Shown here: in pieces, positions 8,586 through 60,601 of the stretch
Layout: each line of letters opens with the position of its first letter
Numbering within the stretch: the first letter of the stretch is position 1
IMG/VR virus record: IMGVR_UViG_3300032233_001072
Location: 1 to 64,000 of that record
Length of the DNA: 64,000 nt
Direction: 5' to 3' (one strand)
Source of the DNA: an uncultured virus (IMG/VR IMGVR_UViG_3300032233_001072)
Lineage: Duplodnaviria; Heunggongvirae; Uroviricota; Caudoviricetes
Translations under genes and position numbers: made by a program
The notes under the pieces: generated by a model
Databases searched by the model: none
The model's input: only the letters and a program-made list of their open reading frames with translations
What the model was told of the DNA's origin: nothing

Positions 8586-8996
8586 CTAATTTGCCGAAAG
8601 CAACCTGTATTTCAACATCTCTAAATCCCCCAAGGACTCAGTCATCTTGGGAATCAAGTTAATATTTATTTTATCGTTGTCTTTCGCCTCAGAAACTAAA
8701 CAATCTGTGCACCGACAACCCTGTCGGTAACGTGTCCATGTTCCATGCGGTTTAAAGACTGTGGGACGAGGTGTCGGGGATGTAAGCGCAGTGCGCTCCT
8801 GTGGTGTCAACCCACCCCACATGCCCCATCGTTCCTCTATGCCGTCGTCCAAGCAAGTCACCCATACTGGACAGCGTTTGCAGACTTCTCTAGCGATGCT
8901 GTAGTACCGCTCAGGCACGTCCGCATCTAAAGGAGGGAACCACAGGTCAATGTGTAGACGTTTGCAGAGAGCGTCATCTCTGTAGGTCTCAGTCAT
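8586..8996 (-). CDS. whiB: WhiB-family factor with an extra C-terminal Cys/His module
   Basis: ALC..WFP..CKRCPVWVTC..GMWGGLTPQER, then HGT..RY..GCRCTDC. Confidence 0.92.
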   Translation of the reverse strand: MTETYRDDALCKRLHIDLWFPPLDADVPERYYSIAREVCKRCPVWVTCLDDGIEERWGMWGGLTPQERTALTSPTPRPTVFKPHGTWTRYRQGCRCTDCLVSEAKDNDKININLIPKMTESLGDLEMLKYRLLSAN

Positions 8997-9406: not shown

Positions 9407-9747
9407 TAGGAGATAAAACCTTCCCACTCATCAGCGATGCCTTCACGCTCTACACAGTCCCAGCCACAAGAGGCATACCCAATTGCGTCCACCCAGTGGT
9501 CACGCTTCTCGGGAGACCATGTCAACCGAGACACCTTGAGAAGGAGCATCATGGAAGCAACGTCATGAGGTTGCAACTTGGTGCTTTCCCGACGGGCAAC
9601 AATGCGACGAATGTACGTTGTCCATAACTCCGCCGTTGTACGGAAGTCGTCAATCGGATCACCGTAAGTGTCGTTGCGGTCACCATTGACCAATGCCTCA
9701 GCCTCTCTCAGAACATCAGAACGATTGTTGAGGGGTTTTGAACTCAT
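9406..9747 (-). CDS. DUF6378-like protein
   Basis: EAEALVNGDRNDTYGDP..F...AELW, MMLLLKVSR, DHWVDAIGYA. Confidence 0.8.
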   Translation of the reverse strand: MSSKPLNNRSDVLREAEALVNGDRNDTYGDPIDDFRTTAELWTTYIRRIVARRESTKLQPHDVASMMLLLKVSRLTWSPEKRDHWVDAIGYASCGWDCVEREGIADEWEGFIS

Positions 9748-10313
9748 GCCATCTCCTTGTTGTAAAGATCTATAAGACGGGCGAACCCCATCAAAGTTTG
9801 TACTCGTACGCAGTCAACGTCCTTATTCCACGATTGGTCGTAGACCACGGGAACGACGTTGGAGCACTCTTGTAAGCGCTGGATGTTGCTCGGGCTGTCC
9901 TCCAGCATGAAACCTACGGAGTCTTCGCCAACGAGATACGAGAAAATTGTCTTGTCTTCGGTAAAATGCAAACCATCTGCTTGGATCATCCAATGGTCAA
10001 GCCACCAAGTGGTGTCTGCCCATGCTTGGGATGGACGTGCCGTGATGATGTGCACTTTGATGCCCATCTCTCTGATTACTTTCAAAGATGCATGGGTACC
10101 AATAGGTGGCTCACCGTGCAGGAAGACACCAGCATGGGATGCCTCAATCAGCAGGGCGCTGTACTCTTCAAAAGACAGCCCCCAGTCCTCGTAGAAGTGC
10201 CAGTGGGTAGGCATTGAAAGCGGGGTGTTTAAAGCCTTGGAACAAAACTTGTAAAACTCTTTGTCAAAAGGATAGATAACCCCGTCAAGGTCAAGGGCAA
10301 TATCAGTAATCAT
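9744..10313 (-). CDS. HAD 5'(3')-deoxyribonucleotidase (NT5C-like)
   Basis: DLDGV, IITAR, EDSPSN, QSWN. Confidence 0.85.
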   Translation of the reverse strand: MITDIALDLDGVIYPFDKEFYKFCSKALNTPLSMPTHWHFYEDWGLSFEEYSALLIEASHAGVFLHGEPPIGTHASLKVIREMGIKVHIITARPSQAWADTTWWLDHWMIQADGLHFTEDKTIFSYLVGEDSVGFMLEDSPSNIQRLQECSNVVPVVYDQSWNKDVDCVRVQTLMGFARLIDLYNKEMA

Positions 10314-10341: not shown

Positions 10342-10371
10342 AGAATACTACCTAGCGGTAGGCTGTGTCAA
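10342..10371 (-). promoter_or_regulatory. Sigma-70-type promoter
   Basis: TTGACA-N18-TATTCT. Confidence 0.65.
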
Positions 10372-11807
10372 CCTTCGTCGGCGTCAATGATTTCGGAGTA
10401 CATTGCATTCGTAGCGTCAGGGCTTAAGCCACCCCCCGGCAATTGCCGTGCAGTCTCTCCCGCTTTAGTGCCAAACAAACGTGACAGCACACCTGCACCA
10501 CCTCGGGCTTCCACTTCTAAACGCACCATCTCACGATTGTCAGAGATGTTTTTAAACTTGTCTACAAGATTAAATACACGATCCATTTCTTGCGACAAGG
10601 TTGGGTCAAGACCCTGTCCTTCTAGTTCTTCAGCAAACCTAGCGAACATCACACGACCTACTTGCATCTCAATTAATGCTCGCATAGCAGACTGAAGTTG
10701 GTCTTTTGTGCGGATCTCTATAGGAAGTTTGTACGCACATTCCATATGTTCTTGAAATGCAGGGCATCTATTGCTCAAATAGCAACTATCGCACTGTCTC
10801 AAAGGGTTGGCGTTGTACCTTAAAACGGGGATCGTTTCAGGGTTCACAACAATAGATTCCCCTTCATTATCAACGGTTTGCGACCCCATGGACACAACCT
10901 CTTCTACCCCCATAACGGGTAGTAAGATACGGTCAATACCGTGCCGCTTATTTGGTACCCCGATAGTAAGATTTGACCCCTGAGAAACCGCAGAAGTGAG
11001 GGGTGCCGTTCTATGGTTGATAGCAACTATTTGCCCATCTGTGGACTGCTCTGACTCGTCGTCACTGTCATCATTCATAAGGTCATAGCCCCCAAAAGTA
11101 TGTGTTTCCCATTGTTGCCAAGAACGTATAGCAAGCGTACCTACAGCGTCTACATCGTCTGCCAAGACAGCGTCGTAATCAACGCCTAAGCGCACAATGT
11201 CAGCACGGTGTTTACGACGTGAACTCTCTTTTTGCTGTGCTGGGTACCGACGTAAACCGTGGTTGTCCCACACTTGTGTTTCCCCATATCGGATGGCGCT
11301 TGTCCATGAGCCGACTACAGCAGAATCCCAATTTACTTTTTCTATTAGGTCGGGCTTGCTGGTGATTCCGATGAGACTTGCTCCCCATCGTTGAGCCAAG
11401 GAGTTGATTCGGTGGATGTTCTTCGGCGTGATCGCTTTGTCACTGATGGCTGAGCGTCCGTACCGCTGGCAAATCCACGCCAGTCTTTCCAAATCCTTTT
11501 CGTCGTTCCATATGGGAACATAGCGGTCTCCTAACCATGTGCCGTCATACTCTGCCCGCCCAATAACTACCGACAAACTGTCAGCGTGATCACGTATAAA
11601 AGAGTCATAGCGGTCGGTGTCTTCGTCGCCTTCAGAAGTGTATAGAAGGATCTCTCCTCCATTAAATAGAGTTTGTAGGTCTAACTCTTTTCTTTTGGGG
11701 ATGGGAAAATGAGTCAGGTTTACACCGAAACGTGTCACCCCATTAGCGAGCAACATGTTTCGGTATGACCCTTTTTCGGCACCGCCAAAAAAGACCTTCA
11801 CTCCCAT
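10368..11807 (-). CDS. Degenerate TGT/DpdA-like barrel fused to a C-terminal Cys-rich/helical domain
   Basis: YVPIWN and IGITSKPD..WDSAVVGSWTSAIRYG resemble TGT-like motifs; CDSC..C..C cluster. Confidence 0.5.
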   Translation of the reverse strand: MGVKVFFGGAEKGSYRNMLLANGVTRFGVNLTHFPIPKRKELDLQTLFNGGEILLYTSEGDEDTDRYDSFIRDHADSLSVVIGRAEYDGTWLGDRYVPIWNDEKDLERLAWICQRYGRSAISDKAITPKNIHRINSLAQRWGASLIGITSKPDLIEKVNWDSAVVGSWTSAIRYGETQVWDNHGLRRYPAQQKESSRRKHRADIVRLGVDYDAVLADDVDAVGTLAIRSWQQWETHTFGGYDLMNDDSDDESEQSTDGQIVAINHRTAPLTSAVSQGSNLTIGVPNKRHGIDRILLPVMGVEEVVSMGSQTVDNEGESIVVNPETIPVLRYNANPLRQCDSCYLSNRCPAFQEHMECAYKLPIEIRTKDQLQSAMRALIEMQVGRVMFARFAEELEGQGLDPTLSQEMDRVFNLVDKFKNISDNREMVRLEVEARGGAGVLSRLFGTKAGETARQLPGGGLSPDATNAMYSEIIDADEG

Positions 11808-12527: not shown

Positions 12528-12991
12528 TAGTCGTACATCCCTTTTTCAACACGAACACGGTGGGTGTAGTACTCAGCAACAGGGCAGTACATGCACACAT
12601 ATTGACGAGCCTCTTTAGGTATGCCCACTTTTCGTCCAATCGTTTTGTCTTCTGAGCACCAGTCAATACAACCTTGTTTAGGACGGTTGTGGCGATTGAA
12701 ACACTTGAGAGCGTCTACCTTTAGTTCGTCACGAAAATCTCGGATGTAAACATCCTGTTCTTTAAGTTCCTTTTTGATGGCTGTCTCAACGTCAAGTTTT
12801 GAGGCAGTATCAGGGTCTGTGCGGTAGATAAGCGCTCTACAGTTGTCAGGGTCAGGAATCTGTGCGTTGTGGCGGTCACAGAGTTCACGTAGTTCCATGT
12901 CGTACTCAGGAGGTCCATCATATGGACGCATCTTGTACATCACTCCGTGCGTTTTGCATACCAAAAGACGTTCATACGCTATGTCAGCCAT
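12527..12991 (-). CDS. Cys/His-rich (Zn-binding) hypothetical protein
   Basis: CKTH, CDRH, CFNRH, CIDWC, CMYC; AGGAG RBS. Confidence 0.8.
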   Translation of the reverse strand: MADIAYERLLVCKTHGVMYKMRPYDGPPEYDMELRELCDRHNAQIPDPDNCRALIYRTDPDTASKLDVETAIKKELKEQDVYIRDFRDELKVDALKCFNRHNRPKQGCIDWCSEDKTIGRKVGIPKEARQYVCMYCPVAEYYTHRVRVEKGMYD

Positions 12992-13039
12992 CTTGTACTC
13001 CTTATTTTATTAATTGAATTAAAAACTTAATTGTGTCTT

Positions 13040-13240
13040 TTAGTGAAACAAACCAGTGTTGGCGTAAGCCGTATTAACTTTGTCAACCACATTGTATTGT
13101 GGCTGGAGTTGGGTGCGACGAATCTGTACGTTATTCACGTCTACCTCACCACCACGGTCAGGGGTGAGCGACTTGTGTGAGCCATCGCAGGCTCCCAAAC
13201 GAAGATCCATGTTCATTGAGCGAGAATCATTAACTGCCAT
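13040..13240 (-). CDS. Small hypothetical protein
   Basis: 66-aa ORF with RBS. Confidence 0.7.
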   Translation of the reverse strand: MAVNDSRSMNMDLRLGACDGSHKSLTPDRGGEVDVNNVQIRRTQLQPQYNVVDKVNTAYANTGLFH

Positions 13241-13252
13241 ACATTAATCCTA

Positions 13253-13957
13253 TCATGTCCAGCCTGAAGAGGGTCGTGACCATGAGCGGTTCATGGTACG
13301 AGACTTTGCAGGAGAAGAAGCGGGGCGAGCGGGGGTCCAAGGGGTAGGTGCCTGAGGTGGGTACATCTTGCCTAAGTTAGCGTTGATGCTCGCAGGGGAA
13401 CCTTTACCAACAAACGGAAGTGGAGCGGGCGCTGGGGCGGGGGCGGGCTTAGGAAACATCTTTGTTAAGTTAGCGTTGATTGCCCCCGGAGTTCCTGTAG
13501 AACTCCAAGGCGTAGACGTGGGGGTAGCCGTTCCGTACCCATATGCATTTGCGTACTGATTGGCTAGTTGGTTGGACTGCGACGCTTTAGAACCTTGCTG
13601 ATAGGCACCTTGCCACATGTCTACGCCTTTGTTGTATGCCTCGGTTTGTTGAGTGTTGTAATTTTGGTATTGCTTAAAAAGGTCTGCGCCTTGTGAGCCA
13701 ATGGCACGTCCCATCGTGGCGACGCCACCTTCACTACCTGCGCCATATCCTCGGTATTCTCCACCTCGCCAAACTTGACCGATACCGATGGAAGGCGGAT
13801 GGTAACCGCCTCCACCTCCACCGCCCATGCGCCCAGCAGAAGGGATACGCCCTTGTGCTGTCCACCTGTTGCGTCGGTTTTCCGCAAAATAGAGTTCACT
13901 GTTAACTTTGTCTGCAAACACAGCCCCCGTTGATGCACCATCCCATGTACCTGCCAT
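13253..13957 (-). CDS. Low-complexity G/P/S/Q-rich protein
   Basis: TAATG coupling; poly-G, PAPAPAP, and INANLxKM twice. Confidence 0.75.
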   Translation of the reverse strand: MAGTWDGASTGAVFADKVNSELYFAENRRNRWTAQGRIPSAGRMGGGGGGGYHPPSIGIGQVWRGGEYRGYGAGSEGGVATMGRAIGSQGADLFKQYQNYNTQQTEAYNKGVDMWQGAYQQGSKASQSNQLANQYANAYGYGTATPTSTPWSSTGTPGAINANLTKMFPKPAPAPAPAPLPFVGKGSPASINANLGKMYPPQAPTPWTPARPASSPAKSRTMNRSWSRPSSGWT

Positions 13958-14265
13958 TACATACCTAAACTTTGCATTGAGTAGCGACTAGAACCGCTAA
14001 ATGAAGGGTCTACAAAACCATTACGGAACATCACAGGAGCACCCGACAACCATGAACGGTTTGTAGGGAAGTTGCGATCAATGTTTAAAACATCCATAAT
14101 CCCCAAAGACTGCTTAACCATACCCCTTGAGTTTGTAAACAATTGTTGTGGCACTGCGGGGCGAATCTTCCTGATCGTGTCAGGGTCAGAGATAGCCGAC
14201 TGCAATGCTTGGTCAACAAGCGTTTCAGAACGTGACTGGTTGGGCTTATAGGGATACTGAGGCAT
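13957..14265 (-). CDS. Hypothetical protein
   Basis: TAATG coupling at both ends. Confidence 0.75.
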   Translation of the reverse strand: MPQYPYKPNQSRSETLVDQALQSAISDPDTIRKIRPAVPQQLFTNSRGMVKQSLGIMDVLNIDRNFPTNRSWLSGAPVMFRNGFVDPSFSGSSRYSMQSLGM

Positions 14266-14537
14266 TATTTATTTTTGTTCCAAACAAGCCCATTTTCTGG
14301 GTCTTCTACGGGGCGGATGTGGCGAACATCGCTAGTTGGTACATGATATTGGTTACCAACGATCCCACCCCAACTGCCACCTCCAGTATCATGGGCTTGC
14401 ATTGAGTCTGTAGAATCTCCACCAGTGCTTTCAGCACTGAACATATGGGTGCGCCCAACACTTCCCATGTATGTGCCTACATGCTCCCTACCAACTTTAC
14501 GGTTTGGATGGTGTGCAGTGTTTTCTCCGTTAGCCAT
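14265..14537 (-). CDS. HPNR-leader protein 3
   Basis: Begins MANGENTAHHPNRKV. Confidence 0.8.
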   Translation of the reverse strand: MANGENTAHHPNRKVGREHVGTYMGSVGRTHMFSAESTGGDSTDSMQAHDTGGGSWGGIVGNQYHVPTSDVRHIRPVEDPENGLVWNKNK

Positions 14538-14539
14538 AA

Positions 14540-14767
14540 TTATTCCTTATCTTTCTTTAAATTACTTCTAAACACAGGGTGGTCTGAAGGTAGATCTTTA
14601 AGTTTCATAATGTCAATAGGTTCGTCAATGCCTTCAACTTTTTCAGGCAACATTCCTATTGATGAAAGGAATGCAGGGTGGTTTTGCATAGGGTGTCCAA
14701 AGTTAGCGTAGACAACATTGTCTACACGCCTATTTGGATGACGGGAAGTGTCTTCACCTTTTGCCAT
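14540..14767 (-). CDS. HPNR-leader protein 2
   Basis: Begins MAKGEDTSRHPNRRV. Confidence 0.8.
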   Translation of the reverse strand: MAKGEDTSRHPNRRVDNVVYANFGHPMQNHPAFLSSIGMLPEKVEGIDEPIDIMKLKDLPSDHPVFRSNLKKDKE

Positions 14768-14769
14768 GA

Positions 14770-15144
14770 CTACCCTTTATATTTCTCGGGAGGTGTTGAA
14801 GCAAACTTTGTACGCACTGCTTTTGCAGTGTCCATTAAAGAGCCAGATTCTCTTATTGATGCTGCTTTTGCAGGATGCATTTTTGTGTATTCTGTAACTC
14901 TTTTAAACCCAGCACGATCAAGAGCAGTTCCAATGCCTTCAACGACATGACTACTATCTGCAAGACCACTAGCAGGATCTACCCCTTTTGTACCGTAACG
15001 ATTTACGGCAGATTGTAATCCTTGCGCTAACGCAGTACCCCATTCTGCACTAGTGCGGGTACTGGGGACCATAGGAATAATCCCTCGCATAGGGACAACA
15101 GGGCGACGATTTGGGTGGTCACGAGTGTCTTCTCCGTTAGCCAT
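14770..15144 (-). CDS. HPNR-leader protein 1
   Basis: Begins MANGEDTRDHPNRRP. Confidence 0.8.
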   Translation of the reverse strand: MANGEDTRDHPNRRPVVPMRGIIPMVPSTRTSAEWGTALAQGLQSAVNRYGTKGVDPASGLADSSHVVEGIGTALDRAGFKRVTEYTKMHPAKAASIRESGSLMDTAKAVRTKFASTPPEKYKG

Positions 15145-15169
15145 AATTAGTCCTTATCTCTTTAGATAC

Positions 15170-15178
15170 ATTTTACCA
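15170..15178 (-). promoter_or_regulatory. Extended -10 promoter for the HPNR-leader genes
   Basis: TGG-TAAAAT in the intergenic gap. Confidence 0.6.
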
Positions 15179-15179
15179 T

Positions 15180-15677
15180 TTAGCGCCAACGAGGGGCGAG
15201 AGACTTCAACATAGAACGACGCTCCATGCTAATTTCTTGAGCGTCTTTTCGGCTCATGTCTCGGGAAATCCCTCGGGGACCGACTTTGCCGTCATTAGTG
15301 AGGCGGACAGGTTCGGCACCTACTGGAGCAAACTTCTTACCTTTTGCTTCCATCTCTAAAGCAGTGAAAAGGTTGAATTCATCAGGCCAAATATAATCAC
15401 TCTGATTAATCCTTTCACCTTTGTGAACACCACGGCTGTACTGCCGAGCGTTCATACGGCTTAAAGAACCAAGGATTTTGTCTTGGCGTCGGTTAGCCGA
15501 CATAGTGCCAAGGTAACCATCAGGGTAGTTAGTGTCAGGCTGTGAACGGTACCCCGACAACTGGGAGTCTTTGGCGTTACGGAAAACTGGGGCAGGACCG
15601 TAAGCAACCGCCGAACCAGCCCCCGGGGCTTCTGAAGGGCTACTCCAAGAAGTAAATGTAGGGGTTTGCTGTGCCAT
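15180..15677 (-). CDS. Hypothetical protein (possible virion protein)
   Basis: 165-aa coupled ORF; YPDGYLGT, Y.RGVHKGERI. Confidence 0.8.
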   Translation of the reverse strand: MAQQTPTFTSWSSPSEAPGAGSAVAYGPAPVFRNAKDSQLSGYRSQPDTNYPDGYLGTMSANRRQDKILGSLSRMNARQYSRGVHKGERINQSDYIWPDEFNLFTALEMEAKGKKFAPVGAEPVRLTNDGKVGPRGISRDMSRKDAQEISMERRSMLKSLAPRWR

Positions 15678-15841
15678 TAGATGTTTACTTGTCCAATACC
15701 GCTAGGTGAGAAACCACCAATGGCGGAAGCACCAGTTGGCTCAATAGGGCGAATATGGTAACGAGCACCGCCACGCTCCCCCATCAAACGATTAGGGGTA
15801 CGCATTGTTACTGCGGGCTGTACTTTCTTCTTTTTAGCCAT
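15677..15841 (-). CDS. 54-aa basic protein (absent from ORF track)
   Basis: MAKKKKVQPAVTMRTPNRL...GQVNI; TAATG overlaps at both ends fill the gap exactly. Confidence 0.75.
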   Translation of the reverse strand: MAKKKKVQPAVTMRTPNRLMGERGGARYHIRPIEPTGASAIGGFSPSGIGQVNI

Positions 15842-16365
15842 TACCCGCCAAATTCGTCATCTCGGTGCAAGTTGCCACTCCATGTAGGCTTTTCCCATTT
15901 ATGTGACATACGTTGACCTGAACTATAATCAACTCCTCCAAAGAAACTTGCCGTTCCCGCTTCTTCATCATGGTGAAAACTTGCATCGGATACGGAATAT
16001 TGTGGTTTATGGTCATCACTGTAGGTTGTTACGTCATGGCGACCTTCTTTACCTGCGGTAGGGGTTGTCCTAATGTACCCACCACCTTTTAGTAGGTAGC
16101 GCCCACGACCTGACGGTGCAGAAGCAGCACCAGATTGTGGAGACATAGTTTCTTTAGAAAAGTTGCCATCTGTTATACGATGAGTATACAAATCAGATGG
16201 GAACTCATGCTTTGTAGGCCGATTTGAAGATGCGTCCCTAACCCACTCGTCAGCACCATTGTCGGCAGGTTGGGATGGTGCGCCATCACCTGCGTAAGGA
16301 TAATCATTACGTCCTGAATAATGGTTTGAACCTGCACCGCCACGAATTTTGTTAAAAATGCCCAT
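15841..16365 (-). CDS. Hypothetical G/S-rich protein
   Basis: 174-aa ORF with GAGG RBS. Confidence 0.75.
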   Translation of the reverse strand: MGIFNKIRGGAGSNHYSGRNDYPYAGDGAPSQPADNGADEWVRDASSNRPTKHEFPSDLYTHRITDGNFSKETMSPQSGAASAPSGRGRYLLKGGGYIRTTPTAGKEGRHDVTTYSDDHKPQYSVSDASFHHDEEAGTASFFGGVDYSSGQRMSHKWEKPTWSGNLHRDDEFGG

Positions 16366-16367
16366 GA

Positions 16368-16658
16368 TTACCTCTGTACTGGTTTGAATGAAATGGCAGA
16401 AATAGTTTCGCCATTATCACCTTGAATATCGTCAAAACCAATTATAAACGATAAATCAATACCTCGTGGTGCTACAAAACCACGAGCAATTGCTGCCGCT
16501 TTTGCGGCTTGGTTGACGGCAGATGCACCGATAGCCCGCATCTTTGGGGTGTGCCCTGCGTTGACTGAGCGGGCAAGAATAGACCCTACACTTTGGGGGT
16601 TGCTAGAACCTGATACTTTGATCACGTCCTCAACGATTGAATGCAGTTCTTGAGACAT
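16368..16658 (-). CDS. spoVS: SpoVS-family (Alba-like) protein
   Basis: KVSGSSNPQSV and AIGASAVNQAAKAAAIARGFVAPRGIDL match the SpoVS signature. Confidence 0.92.
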   Translation of the reverse strand: MSQELHSIVEDVIKVSGSSNPQSVGSILARSVNAGHTPKMRAIGASAVNQAAKAAAIARGFVAPRGIDLSFIIGFDDIQGDNGETISAISFKPVQR

Positions 16659-16700
16659 AAGTTACTCCTAGTAAAACAAAGATTGTGTTGCCCTTGTATT

Positions 16701-17078
16701 TTAGGAGTATTCAGCCTCAGTCAAGAGGTCAATAAAATCATCCAACCTCATCACAACATAAGTTTCACCTAACGCTTTTTCCCCTTTACCCTGTCTCTTC
16801 ACGACTAGGGCTGGTACAGCGTTACCAAGGCGGGTAGCCTGCTCAACGGTGTCGTTAAGCCACTGGCTCAATTGGAACTGCTTTTGGTTCTTACATTGCA
16901 CCGCTACTTTGCGAAGGGTAGAGTGACGGGCAATCCCGTTAATGTCTCCCGTATCGTTACCACCTGATAAAGCAGGACGGTGAGCGTGAATAAAGCCTTT
17001 AGAAATTAAATAATCTCTTACAAGTACCTCAAAGGATGTTCCTTTGGCTTTTGCTTTATTTCCCACGGTACCCTGCAT
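16701..17078 (-). CDS. Hjc-like Holliday junction resolvase
   Basis: KAKGTSFE, DTGDI, VQCKNQK. Confidence 0.85.
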   Translation of the reverse strand: MQGTVGNKAKAKGTSFEVLVRDYLISKGFIHAHRPALSGGNDTGDINGIARHSTLRKVAVQCKNQKQFQLSQWLNDTVEQATRLGNAVPALVVKRQGKGEKALGETYVVMRLDDFIDLLTEAEYS

Positions 17079-56500: not shown

Positions 56501-57103
56501 CTAGTTTTGAACAACACAGTTGAACGGGGGTCCAGTGTGTGGGTCAAATCTAGAGGCAATTTGTAGGGCTAGGAGCGCTTCTGAGCGGGCTTTAGCCATT
56601 GTGTAGTCCTTCTTAGGCTTTCGGGCATGCAAAGCGCCTACGGCATACTGAGCACCTGATCCGAGGGCGTAGATGCCACTACGGTCGTTAGACCATGAAT
56701 AATCGCCATTTACAACGTAGATAGTGCTATTGATGACAGCAAGGATGGTTGACCCTTGTTCTGCAACATGCGCCGAACTATCTTTGGTAGGCATGGCATA
56801 CCCTTGTTGCTCAAAGCACCCTCTTAGCGCAGGGATAAATTTCATTGTAAAAAACTTATCTAGTTTTTGACCTTCACATCCTGCTGGTGGTAAGGGAGGG
56901 GTAAAAACGTGGTGAAGGATGTTGATAGCACGAACATCCCCAGCCGCCCCTAATAGGTACTTACCATTGACGGCTACTTTTGCCGAAGTTCCTTTTAGGG
57001 TTGTGGTCATACTTACGTAGCCACTTTCGTCTACATCGCAGATACGGGAATCTGAACCGACTAGGGAAAAGCCTTCTCCTTGGATTGCCACAATAGTAGT
57101 CAT
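56501..57103 (-). CDS. Proteasome-beta/HslV-like Ntn hydrolase
   Basis: M-TTIVA..DSR, K33-like KV, ALGSGAQYA.GAL, D..TG; TAATG start at 57103. Confidence 0.88.
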   Translation of the reverse strand: MTTIVAIQGEGFSLVGSDSRICDVDESGYVSMTTTLKGTSAKVAVNGKYLLGAAGDVRAINILHHVFTPPLPPAGCEGQKLDKFFTMKFIPALRGCFEQQGYAMPTKDSSAHVAEQGSTILAVINSTIYVVNGDYSWSNDRSGIYALGSGAQYAVGALHARKPKKDYTMAKARSEALLALQIASRFDPHTGPPFNCVVQN

Positions 57104-58257
57104 TAGGCTGTGTACTCCTTGTTGTGGTACATCGCCCAACCTTCACGGATAGGGATCATTTCAAGGTTAAATTCAGCATCACCATCTTTGTAACTAACCA
57201 CACAAAGCCCTTGTTGCCAGTTCTCAGTAATGATCATCGGACGACCATCAAGGTCAATCCCACCTTTAGTGGAAGGAACTACTCCATCAACACGAGCAAG
57301 ACAGCCCGCAGAGGCCGCTAGGATCGTCTTACGCCCGTCATAATCCTCACGAGTCACTTCTGCCCACTCACGGCGATGAATGTGCCCATAGAGCACTGAG
57401 GTCTTTTCGTTAGCCAAATACATGTGTGCGGTAGAGCCATTGCTCTTGACACGGGTACCGTGAATAACTTTTAACTTCTGATTGATCCAGTAGTAGCCAG
57501 CAGGGTAGCCGGGGACGTACTTGACATTGAAGTCATCAAAACGACAGAGGAAGGGCACTGAAAGAACAGGCCAGTTGTCAGGGGTATCCCCACGACGTAG
57601 CCCAAAAGAAGCCTTTGCATTATCTAACGTGTAGTTAACAAGACGCTCTTCGTGGTTACCAGCAAGCCAAACAATTTCAGCATCAGGGGCAACTGCACGT
57701 AGACGAGCCATCAAGATGGTTGCGTAGTCAATGGCTCTTTGAGTAGTCAGTGCGTATGCAGGACTAAGGCGGTATTTACCAAACTCAGCAAAGTCAAGGT
57801 TGTCACCATGCATGACTACTTTGGCTGGCTTTAAGTCTTTGATCATTGCAACACAAATATCAATAGCCGCTTCATCATGGATGGCTTCTAGTTCACCTGC
57901 CACGTTACGGAAATAACCAATCTGCATGTCAGGTAGGACTACCGCAGTGTTCCATTCTGTTTTCTTTGGTGTTTTGGTTACATTACTTGTGGGTAACTTA
58001 ACTGCTGGCCCTTGGTGGACTGGGTCCCATTCAGGTCCTTCTGCCCACTTAGGAGAGAATTGAATAGCAGCAAGGTCGTGAATCTGTGCTTCACCTTCTT
58101 GGTCTTTGGTTAAAGACTGGTAAAGCGATACACGTTTTACAGAGCCAATTTCATTGATGTCAATGTTCTGACGATCAAGGATTTCAACAAGGCGACCAAG
58201 CGCTTGTGATTTGGATTCTGTTGGTCCTTTTTTTAATTCACTTGATAATTCGCTCAC
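57103..58257 (-). CDS. Calcineurin-like metallophosphoesterase
   Basis: DMQ, GDNLD, GNHE, HG, GHIH. Confidence 0.88.
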   Translation of the reverse strand: MSELSSELKKGPTESKSQALGRLVEILDRQNIDINEIGSVKRVSLYQSLTKDQEGEAQIHDLAAIQFSPKWAEGPEWDPVHQGPAVKLPTSNVTKTPKKTEWNTAVVLPDMQIGYFRNVAGELEAIHDEAAIDICVAMIKDLKPAKVVMHGDNLDFAEFGKYRLSPAYALTTQRAIDYATILMARLRAVAPDAEIVWLAGNHEERLVNYTLDNAKASFGLRRGDTPDNWPVLSVPFLCRFDDFNVKYVPGYPAGYYWINQKLKVIHGTRVKSNGSTAHMYLANEKTSVLYGHIHRREWAEVTREDYDGRKTILAASAGCLARVDGVVPSTKGGIDLDGRPMIITENWQQGLCVVSYKDGDAEFNLEMIPIREGWAMYHNKEYTA

Positions 58258-60199: not shown

Positions 60200-60601
60200 T
60201 TAGTCGCTAACGACCGTGGCATTCATGCGGTTGGTGTGTGTGCCCGGGTTGAAGGCACGCTCAAACTGTGGCATTCCGTCGCCAGCCATTGCGCCTTGAA
60301 CGAAGTCAGACAATACAGTTGGGGCTTCAATCCACGATGCGGAACCTACGTGAGCACGCTCACGCATGGTGTCCATAGGGTGTTTGAAAACACCTTCAGG
60401 GTTGTTGTGGTTCATGCGACCGGGAGCCGATGAGGTGTCAAAGTAAGCGCCACGGGCAAAGTCATTTGGAACGTCGGTGTCAGTTGCGACACCTTCCTCA
60501 AAACGAAGCGGTCCCTTGTTCATCGGGATGCTAGGTGCATAGGTACGTTCAAAGACGTTTGGTGAACGCTCTGGGAACATTGGTGCGGGTGCTACATTCA
60601 C
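60200..60601 (-). CDS. Hypothetical, probable virion protein
   Basis: GGAGG RBS; GPLRFEEGVATDTDVP, ERAHVGSASW. Confidence 0.8.
   Translation of the reverse strand: MNVAPAPMFPERSPNVFERTYAPSIPMNKGPLRFEEGVATDTDVPNDFARGAYFDTSSAPGRMNHNNPEGVFKHPMDTMRERAHVGSASWIEAPTVLSDFVQGAMAGDGMPQFERAFNPGTHTNRMNATVVSD

Follow-up and report, generated by a model that had tools for sequence, protein, structure and literature searches.

A portable 17-residue N-terminal leader on unrelated small proteins of freshwater actinobacterial myoviruses, a candidate capsid-addressing tag

Why do three neighbouring phage genes keep the same start when the proteins behind that start have no evident similarity? This question is raised by a trio of small tandem genes in an uncultured virus of the Caudoviricetes (IMG/VR record IMGVR_UViG_3300032233_001072). 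The whole record is complete and measures 94,948 bp; the stretch analysed here, referred to as the window, comprises its positions 1 to 64,000. The three gene products, of 124, 75 and 90 amino acids (aa), begin with a shared peptide of 17 residues, which we call the leader; proteins that carry it are called leader proteins, and the part that follows is called the body. An earlier reading of the sequence, made without database searches (the sequence-only reading), had taken the leader for a targeting tag that loads interchangeable cargo into the phage head for injection. We find the leader to be a portable tag under selection at the peptide level, held strictly at the N-terminus, restricted to one phage lineage and situated in a variable slot. 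We tentatively regard it as a candidate capsid-addressing tag for small injected effectors, analogous and not homologous to the targeting sequence of the phage T4 internal proteins.

All three open reading frames (ORFs) are present on the minus strand, and their starts, which fit the pattern MA[NK]GE[DN]TxxHPNR[RK], are exactly those quoted by the sequence-only reading (Table 1). The leader genes are separated by spacers of 2 nucleotides (nt), and the stop codon of the 90-aa gene overlaps the ATG of a following 102-aa gene. A degenerate DNA pattern for the leader gave 3 matches in the 64-kb window versus 0.00 expected from 100 shuffles, and no leader copy beyond the trio exists in the 94,948-bp record. 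With a hidden Markov model (HMM) of the leader the trio scored 42-52 bits and the next-best ORF of the genome 3.5 bits. None of the three proteins has a family match in Pfam, PHROG or NCBIfam. The mean Kyte-Doolittle hydropathy of leader residues 1-17 is -1.55 to -1.98, and no 9-residue window within the first 35 residues exceeds 1.24; the hydrophobic core or stretch of a Sec or Tat signal peptide is absent, in agreement with the earlier description of the leader as hydrophilic and not a secretion signal. Contigs of two metatranscriptome runs from two studies cover parts of 12985-16645, among them the 5' half of the 75-aa gene, and hint at transcription of the leader genes; the shares in these RNA libraries are small, DNA is possible in such libraries and the runs were picked using the same stretch.

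Across the family the 17-residue N-terminus has the consensus MA[RNK]GE[DN]TxxHP[NG]R[KRQ]V[GSD]R, in which G4, T7, H10, P11, R13, V15 and R17 are the best-kept positions. The synonymous changes that had been noticed in the trio are seen there and come out more strongly across 45 distinct copies from related contigs: G4 is encoded by GGA in 24 copies, GGT in 11 and GGC in 10; T7 by ACC in 17, ACT in 16 and ACA in 10; H10 by CAC in 26 and CAT in 19; and R13 by four codons. The 45 copies were gathered by a pattern fixing several residues, which makes their invariance partly a matter of construction; their synonymous variation is not. The 30 nt ahead of the leader starts contain nothing beyond a generic purine-rich ribosome-binding site. 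Because the residues are fixed while the codons vary, and because the upstream region is so plain, the codon pattern indicates that selection acts on the leader peptide, not on the RNA. Spaced three residues apart, G4, T7, H10 and R13 are suggestive of a binding conformation that is extended or resembles polyproline II.

The bodies are of many kinds. The three window proteins do not align past residue 17, and the invariant columns after residue 13 of their three-way alignment are scattered. In total 94 unique full-length leader proteins were collected, of which one, an ORF of 17 aa, was afterwards dismissed as a chance match; BLAST of the bodies alone divides the 93 unique leader proteins of at least 40 aa into 32 clusters, and the members of the window trio belong to three different clusters. 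When the five largest body clusters were compared as profiles by hhalign, leaving out residues 1-18, the probabilities were at most 0.5%. The lack of evident similarity downstream of the leader, as originally described, is thus upheld by both the BLAST clusters and the profiles, and the bodies of the five clusters compared are not homologous along their length, as those of plain paralogues would be. The 75-aa body type was found with at least two different C-termini, relatives carrying a 54-aa variant that ends differently, and the same short motifs turn up in otherwise different bodies, giving them a mosaic character. A DDAPxHGIPRP-like motif occurs in one to four copies each in many otherwise different leader proteins, and several body C-termini resemble a zinc ribbon by eye, with paired CxxC motifs. 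The recurring body motifs look like shuffled short linear motifs. Net charges of the bodies range from -11 to +6 and are mostly zero or negative.

Structure prediction gave some indication of how leader and body are arranged. ESM Atlas models of the 124-aa and 90-aa proteins are of low confidence (predicted local distance difference test, pLDDT, 0.41 and 0.36, respectively). An AlphaFold2 model of the 90-aa type, built from a 19-row alignment, reached a pLDDT of 63.5 overall, with 70-83 in a small beta body and at most 51 at residues 1-16; on account of these low values the leader is predicted to be a free N-terminal tail that is not packed on the body of the 90-aa type. A Foldseek comparison of this model with BFVD returned 0 matches at E≤0.001. 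Querying the ESM Atlas with the leader alone gave no usable match; for the 124-aa protein all feature matches scored below 0.9, and a phage DNA-ejection cluster at 0.87 was not used as evidence. Complex prediction from alignments of the capsid, scaffold-like, 102-aa and 90-aa leader proteins scored 0.00 with controls not run, and is neutral on binding.

How far the leader is spread was addressed by several searches. Exact-pattern scans yielded 7, 18 and 11 loci in IMG/VR contigs and 10 metagenome loci, two of which (L015 and L016) proved to be chance hits within large genes and were rejected. The 72 proteins returned by a word-seeded profile search, 58 at E<1e-3, are without exception metagenomic; none has a Pfam domain or an informative name. 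When 1,835,955,588 proteins were searched exhaustively with an HMM of a 34-residue leader profile, 175 clusters (at 50% identity) reached E≤1e-3. Among the 150 matches listed of the 175, the leader starts at residue 1-2 in 146, which measure 50-175 aa; the other four were set aside as two over-extended ORF calls and two long repeat proteins (P0076 and P0195). The expectation that a pattern or profile search would reveal many unrelated C-termini in this clade was thereby confirmed, and with 175 clusters the leader is not limited to its own genome. No leader was found on proteins of 220-2000 aa, which is weak evidence. The leader DNA pattern, searched as an exact pattern, had 0 matches in 185,579 prokaryote species, each represented by one genome, so that at the level of this DNA pattern there is no sign of the leader mimicking the N-terminus of a host protein; tblastn of two leader proteins against 50,697 GenBank phages, a search insensitive to a 17-residue match, gave no leader match. 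A text search of about 8.4 million papers and preprints for the leader motif strings came back empty. The leader family is real, without annotation and, in the sources searched, undescribed.

The loci share a common background. Further homologues of the window genome are carried by 39 of the 44 leader loci, three others being too short to judge and two being chance matches. Since several loci represent the same contig in two collections, the independent lineages are fewer than the loci. The leader family is confined to one phage lineage, uncultured and from freshwater, and a lineage-specific partner is the simplest reason for this restriction. The window genome, nearly all of whose genes lie on the minus strand, has the gene set of a myovirus (tail sheath, baseplate proteins, portal, major capsid protein and large terminase) together with a family-A DNA polymerase and a DnaB-type helicase for replication. 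Its capsid protein matches phage capsid families and is 58% identical to the counterpart in Streptomyces phage BRock (Borockvirus); this similarity and a WhiB gene point to an actinobacterial host. BRock, also a myovirus, is the closest cultured relative. Its whole genome (112,523 bp) contains 0 regex matches for the leader and a best HMM score of 7.5 bits, and megablast of positions 13000-17000 against GenBank phages returned zero matches.

The surroundings of the leader genes differ between relatives in an ordered way. In a clade of low guanine-plus-cytosine (GC) content to which the window belongs (GC 0.44-0.49; 28 loci that include at least one flank), the slot that holds the leader genes is bordered by homologues of a 165-aa gene and the 102-aa gene. 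These flanks are 62-98% identical over the aligned relatives and 85-100% in the closest ones, and the number and kind of the cassettes between them differ (Table 1). The 165-aa protein has no family match and nothing at E≤1 in a PDB profile search, its AlphaFold2 model (pLDDT 48.6) was discarded as unusable, and the 102-aa protein gave one PDB profile match, at E 0.62. BRock shares with the window phage the order SpoVS gene, 165-aa gene, 102-aa-like gene and queuine-tRNA-ribosyltransferase-like gene; it differs in having no leader, whereas the slot of the window phage is filled. In BRock the gene next to gp48, which is the homologue of the 165-aa gene, is gp47; it is 102-aa-like by eye and was unlisted by BLAST. 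Judged from this gene order the slot is empty in BRock, which argues against the flanking genes as dedicated partners of the leader.

The same slot in relatives holds at least two more small-protein families, each with a conserved N-terminus and a variable remainder. One begins MAH[DN]HR..IADPY, with a related M(P)TDHRG type in L002, L006 and L024; the other begins MA[SN]RF...YR.P. A conserved start followed by a variable body may be typical of this slot in general. Downstream of the 102-aa gene the window encodes a 234-aa low-complexity protein with a Gly run, a Q/N-rich stretch and PA repeats, in place of which L024 and L032 have an unrelated protein of ~505-509 aa without a Pfam match. The SpoVS-family gene, always just upstream of the small-gene region, is 80-100% identical among freshwater relatives and is also present in BRock as gp51. 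Further along lie the queuine-tRNA-ribosyltransferase-like (DpdA-like) gene and an NT5C-type nucleotidase gene; the former suggests 7-deazaguanine modification of the phage DNA.

A promoter of its own had been proposed for the trio, and this claim holds in part. The element TGGTAAAAT, 26 nt ahead of the ATG of leader gene 1, contains a TAAAAT hexamer just past the stop of the 165-aa gene that is kept in the same place in 11 of 13 relatives; its TGn extension is present in only 6 of the 13, and there is no -35 element, for which reason a sigma-70 scan did not list TGGTAAAAT. In seven relatives the next ATG lies 6-8 nt past the hexamer, and the mRNA would therefore be leaderless; leaderless mRNAs are common in Actinobacteria. 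The sequence GGTAAAAT was considered as a genome-wide promoter class and rejected (6 copies versus 4.0 expected).

Table 1. Features of the leader locus and of related loci. Positions refer to the window unless a locus is named; L, G and P numbers are the handles of loci, genome records and proteins.
Feature	Position	Strand	Remarks
Leader gene 1, 124 aa	14770..15144	-	body in a 7-member BLAST cluster with a shared helix-like motif
Leader gene 2, 75 aa	14540..14767	-	body in the largest cluster (21 members), mosaic of short motifs
Leader gene 3, 90 aa	14265..14537	-	most widespread body type, also in the head module of mid-GC relatives
Leader codons 1-17, gene 1	15094..15144	-	
Leader codons 1-17, gene 2	14717..14767	-	
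Leader codons 1-17, gene 3	14487..14537	-	
Extended -10-like element TGGTAAAAT	15170..15178	-	within the 35 nt that separate the 165-aa gene from leader gene 1
165-aa gene, upstream slot border	15180..15677	-	65-98% identical in 11 relatives; 44% to BRock gp48
102-aa gene, downstream slot border	13957..14265	-	62-97% identical in 12 relatives; ATG overlaps stop of leader gene 3
133-aa gene adjoining terminase	60200-60601	-	in every relative seen, including BRock (gp155); 57% identical in G001
HslV/proteasome-type Ntn peptidase gene	56501..57139	-	head module, two genes upstream of portal
SpoVS-family gene	16368-16658	-	Pfam E 7.5e-21
WhiB gene	8586..8996	-	
234-aa low-complexity protein	13253-13957	-	
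Queuine-tRNA-ribosyltransferase-like (DpdA-like) gene	10368-11807	-	
NT5C-type nucleotidase	9744-10313	-	
Slot content, window			124-, 75- and 90-aa genes
Slot content, L002			54-aa and 125-aa gene
Slot content, L005, L006, L019			87-aa, 54-aa and another 90-aa gene
Slot content, other loci			up to four or five cassettes
Further slot families	L027:3412-4402, L030:860-1897, L034:7023-7617, L037:10045-10398, L041:12138-13089		also in L002 and L006, directly after the 165-aa gene
DDAPxHGIPRP-like motif and/or zinc-ribbon-like ends	L024:2053-2313; L033:805-1110		also P0020, P0027, P0032, P0035, P0038, P0039, P0064, P0066
Nine terminase-portal loci			L003, L007, L023, L057, L058, L060, L062, L063, L064
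GC of the four terminase-portal lineages			mid-GC 0.53-0.55 (L057, L062, L063, L064); L058 0.66; L060 0.63; G001 and G002 0.62-0.64

A second kind of location is found outside the low-GC clade. In four lineages of mid or high GC content, represented by 9 loci, leader genes lie between the terminase (with its adjoining 133-aa gene) and the portal, that is, in the head module; L059 and L061 add other accessory contexts. The mid-GC leader gene has the same body type as the 90-aa gene of the window. In the mid-GC relatives it is translationally coupled to the 133-aa gene, with its ATG in L063 overlapping the stop codon of that gene. The head module of the window phage also encodes an HslV/proteasome-type Ntn peptidase, whose frame contains an internal Met followed by Thr-Thr, an arrangement that would expose a catalytic Thr. 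Of 5 low-GC relatives, 4 have a homologue of the peptidase. A search of 68 kb of the G001 record, which carries two leader genes, turned up no HslV-like gene, and in the mid-GC contigs the phosphoesterase and portal genes lie too close together to admit one; the peptidase is therefore unlikely to be an obligatory partner of the leader. A canonical prohead protease family was not found between the portal and capsid genes, where a 260-aa gene encodes a coiled-coil, scaffold-like protein.

Several known systems offer a comparison. The closest parallel is with the T4 internal proteins IPI, IPII and IPIII, which share a short conserved N-terminal peptide, the capsid-targeting sequence, are otherwise unrelated small proteins and are encoded by tandem genes; their locus, polymorphic among T-even phages and described in the review literature as hyperplastic between conserved flanks, resembles the slot described above. 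A short conserved N-terminal peptide on unrelated proteins in a polymorphic locus is thus common to both. Sequence homology to the internal proteins or their targeting sequence was not detected in PHROG, Pfam, NCBIfam or by tblastn against GenBank phages. The present system further differs from that of T4 in the host phylum (Actinobacteria) and in that no large enzyme was found with the tag, nor a cleavage motif, a T4-type prohead protease or core genes. The T4 internal proteins are basic, whereas the leader bodies are mostly acidic or neutral. Encapsulin cargo-loading peptides are likewise short, disordered and terminal and dock cargo inside an HK97-fold shell, and a phage capsid protein is present here; they are usually C-terminal, whereas the leader is N-terminal and has a different motif. 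Polymorphic toxin and effector systems, as outlined in PMC3482391, combine a constant N-terminal trafficking module with variable C-terminal cassettes. On that outline they resemble the leader family in their constant N-terminus, their variable, recombining C-termini and their cassettes in a variable locus; they differ in that what stays constant here is a peptide of only 17 residues rather than a domain, and in that the bodies have no toxin-family match in Pfam, PHROG or NCBIfam. No toxin domain with an immunity gene is seen, the genes downstream being further leader genes or the 102-aa gene.

Among the explanations considered, we prefer that the leader is a lineage-specific capsid-addressing tag of freshwater actinobacterial myoviruses that loads interchangeable, motif-built effectors for co-injection, an independent invention of the strategy of the T4 internal proteins; we put its probability at roughly one in three. 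A 17-residue module would recombine onto unrelated small proteins of 50-190 aa that are mosaic and mostly acidic or neutral. The leader would act as an unstructured docking tail for one common partner; we infer such docking, and its most likely site would be a component of the assembling head in the same phage lineage. By this means the tag may direct a changeable set of small effectors into the capsid, from which the packaged effectors would be delivered to the host together with the DNA; both a partner in the head and the injection of the cargo are speculative. The portable, peptide-level nature of the leader and its occurrence on unrelated bodies, as the sequence-only reading had proposed, is supported by the searches, the clusters and the codon variation. 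A partner in head assembly is favoured because the family is restricted to one structural lineage and because four lineages have leader genes in the head module; the hyperplasticity of the slot, recalling the T4 internal-protein locus, also speaks for this reading. Several observations weigh against packaging. The leader genes of the window clade are far from the head module, after replication, SpoVS and nuclease genes, and stand behind their own host-type -10 element amid genes without assigned function; the predominance of acidic and neutral bodies is not what would be expected of DNA-associated internal proteins; the leader does not end in any evident conserved cleavage motif of protease type; and the candidate Ntn peptidase is not shared by all leader-bearing phages. 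The terminase-portal interval is, moreover, itself a variable accessory region in this lineage, so the position of leader genes there is only weak evidence for a head function.

Only slightly less probable is that the leader is instead a docking peptide for a conserved host hub or a non-structural phage protein, and that the leader proteins are cytoplasmic host-takeover or anti-defence effectors that are never packaged and whose shuffled-motif bodies bring in different targets. The low-GC leader genes do lie among small genes of no assigned function beside the replication module, with a host-type -10 hexamer of their own conserved in 11 of 13 relatives. The small, mostly acidic or neutral, mosaic bodies, with one to four shuffled copies of the DDAPxHGIPRP-like motif, suit this role, as do the two other families with conserved N-termini in the same slot; accessory and anti-defence islands are variable, and so is the slot. 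Such docking would leave unaccounted for the restriction of the family to one structural lineage, though many other actinophages share such hosts, and the head-module leader genes of four other lineages; nor does an ordinary linear motif need a strict position at residue 1. That position, together with the lack of structure and the basic cluster R-[KRQ]-V-x-R that closes the leader, would also fit a processing or turnover signal, namely a propeptide or degron for the HslV-like Ntn peptidase of the phage or for the host Clp or proteasome, which would mature the proteins or limit their lifetime. We judge this unlikely: the phage peptidase is encoded in the head module and in 4 of 5 low-GC relatives, but it was not found in 68 kb of G001 and has no room between the phosphoesterase and portal genes of the mid-GC contigs, there is no direct sign of cleavage, and a degron by itself would not account for 17 conserved residues with period-3 invariants (G4, T7, H10, R13). 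Small phage genes evolve fast, and tandem genes with ribosome-binding regions alike in gene 1 and gene 3 could be ordinary paralogues whose bodies have diverged past recognition while the start was kept for translation initiation or an RNA-level signal. This is rendered improbable by leader codons that vary freely at synonymous sites while the residues stay fixed, by the generic purine-rich ribosome-binding site in the upstream 30 nt, by 32 body clusters with no profile similarity among those compared, and by mosaic recombination, in which the same body has different tails and the same motifs recur in different bodies. Least probable of all is a recognition sequence for a modifying enzyme, as in the precursors of ribosomally synthesized and post-translationally modified peptides, which also have a conserved leader on variable sequence and may be encoded several in tandem. 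Pfam, PHROG and NCBIfam scans found no modifying-enzyme family in or beside the slot, bodies of 50-190 aa far exceed typical core peptides, and some of them model as a fold or, by eye, end in zinc-ribbon-like CxxC pairs.

If the leader is an address label, the 175 clusters would constitute a large unannotated class of phage effectors in some of the most abundant freshwater phage-host systems, and the label would provide a natural 17-residue handle by which the effectors can be found by sequence and the partner by pull-down. Loading of foreign proteins into actinophage particles might then be possible as well. Should capsid addressing prove true, well over a hundred natural cargo variants are already visible in metagenomes. 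Even with a host-hub partner, the leader family would be a clean natural experiment in how modular viral proteins evolve from short linear motifs.

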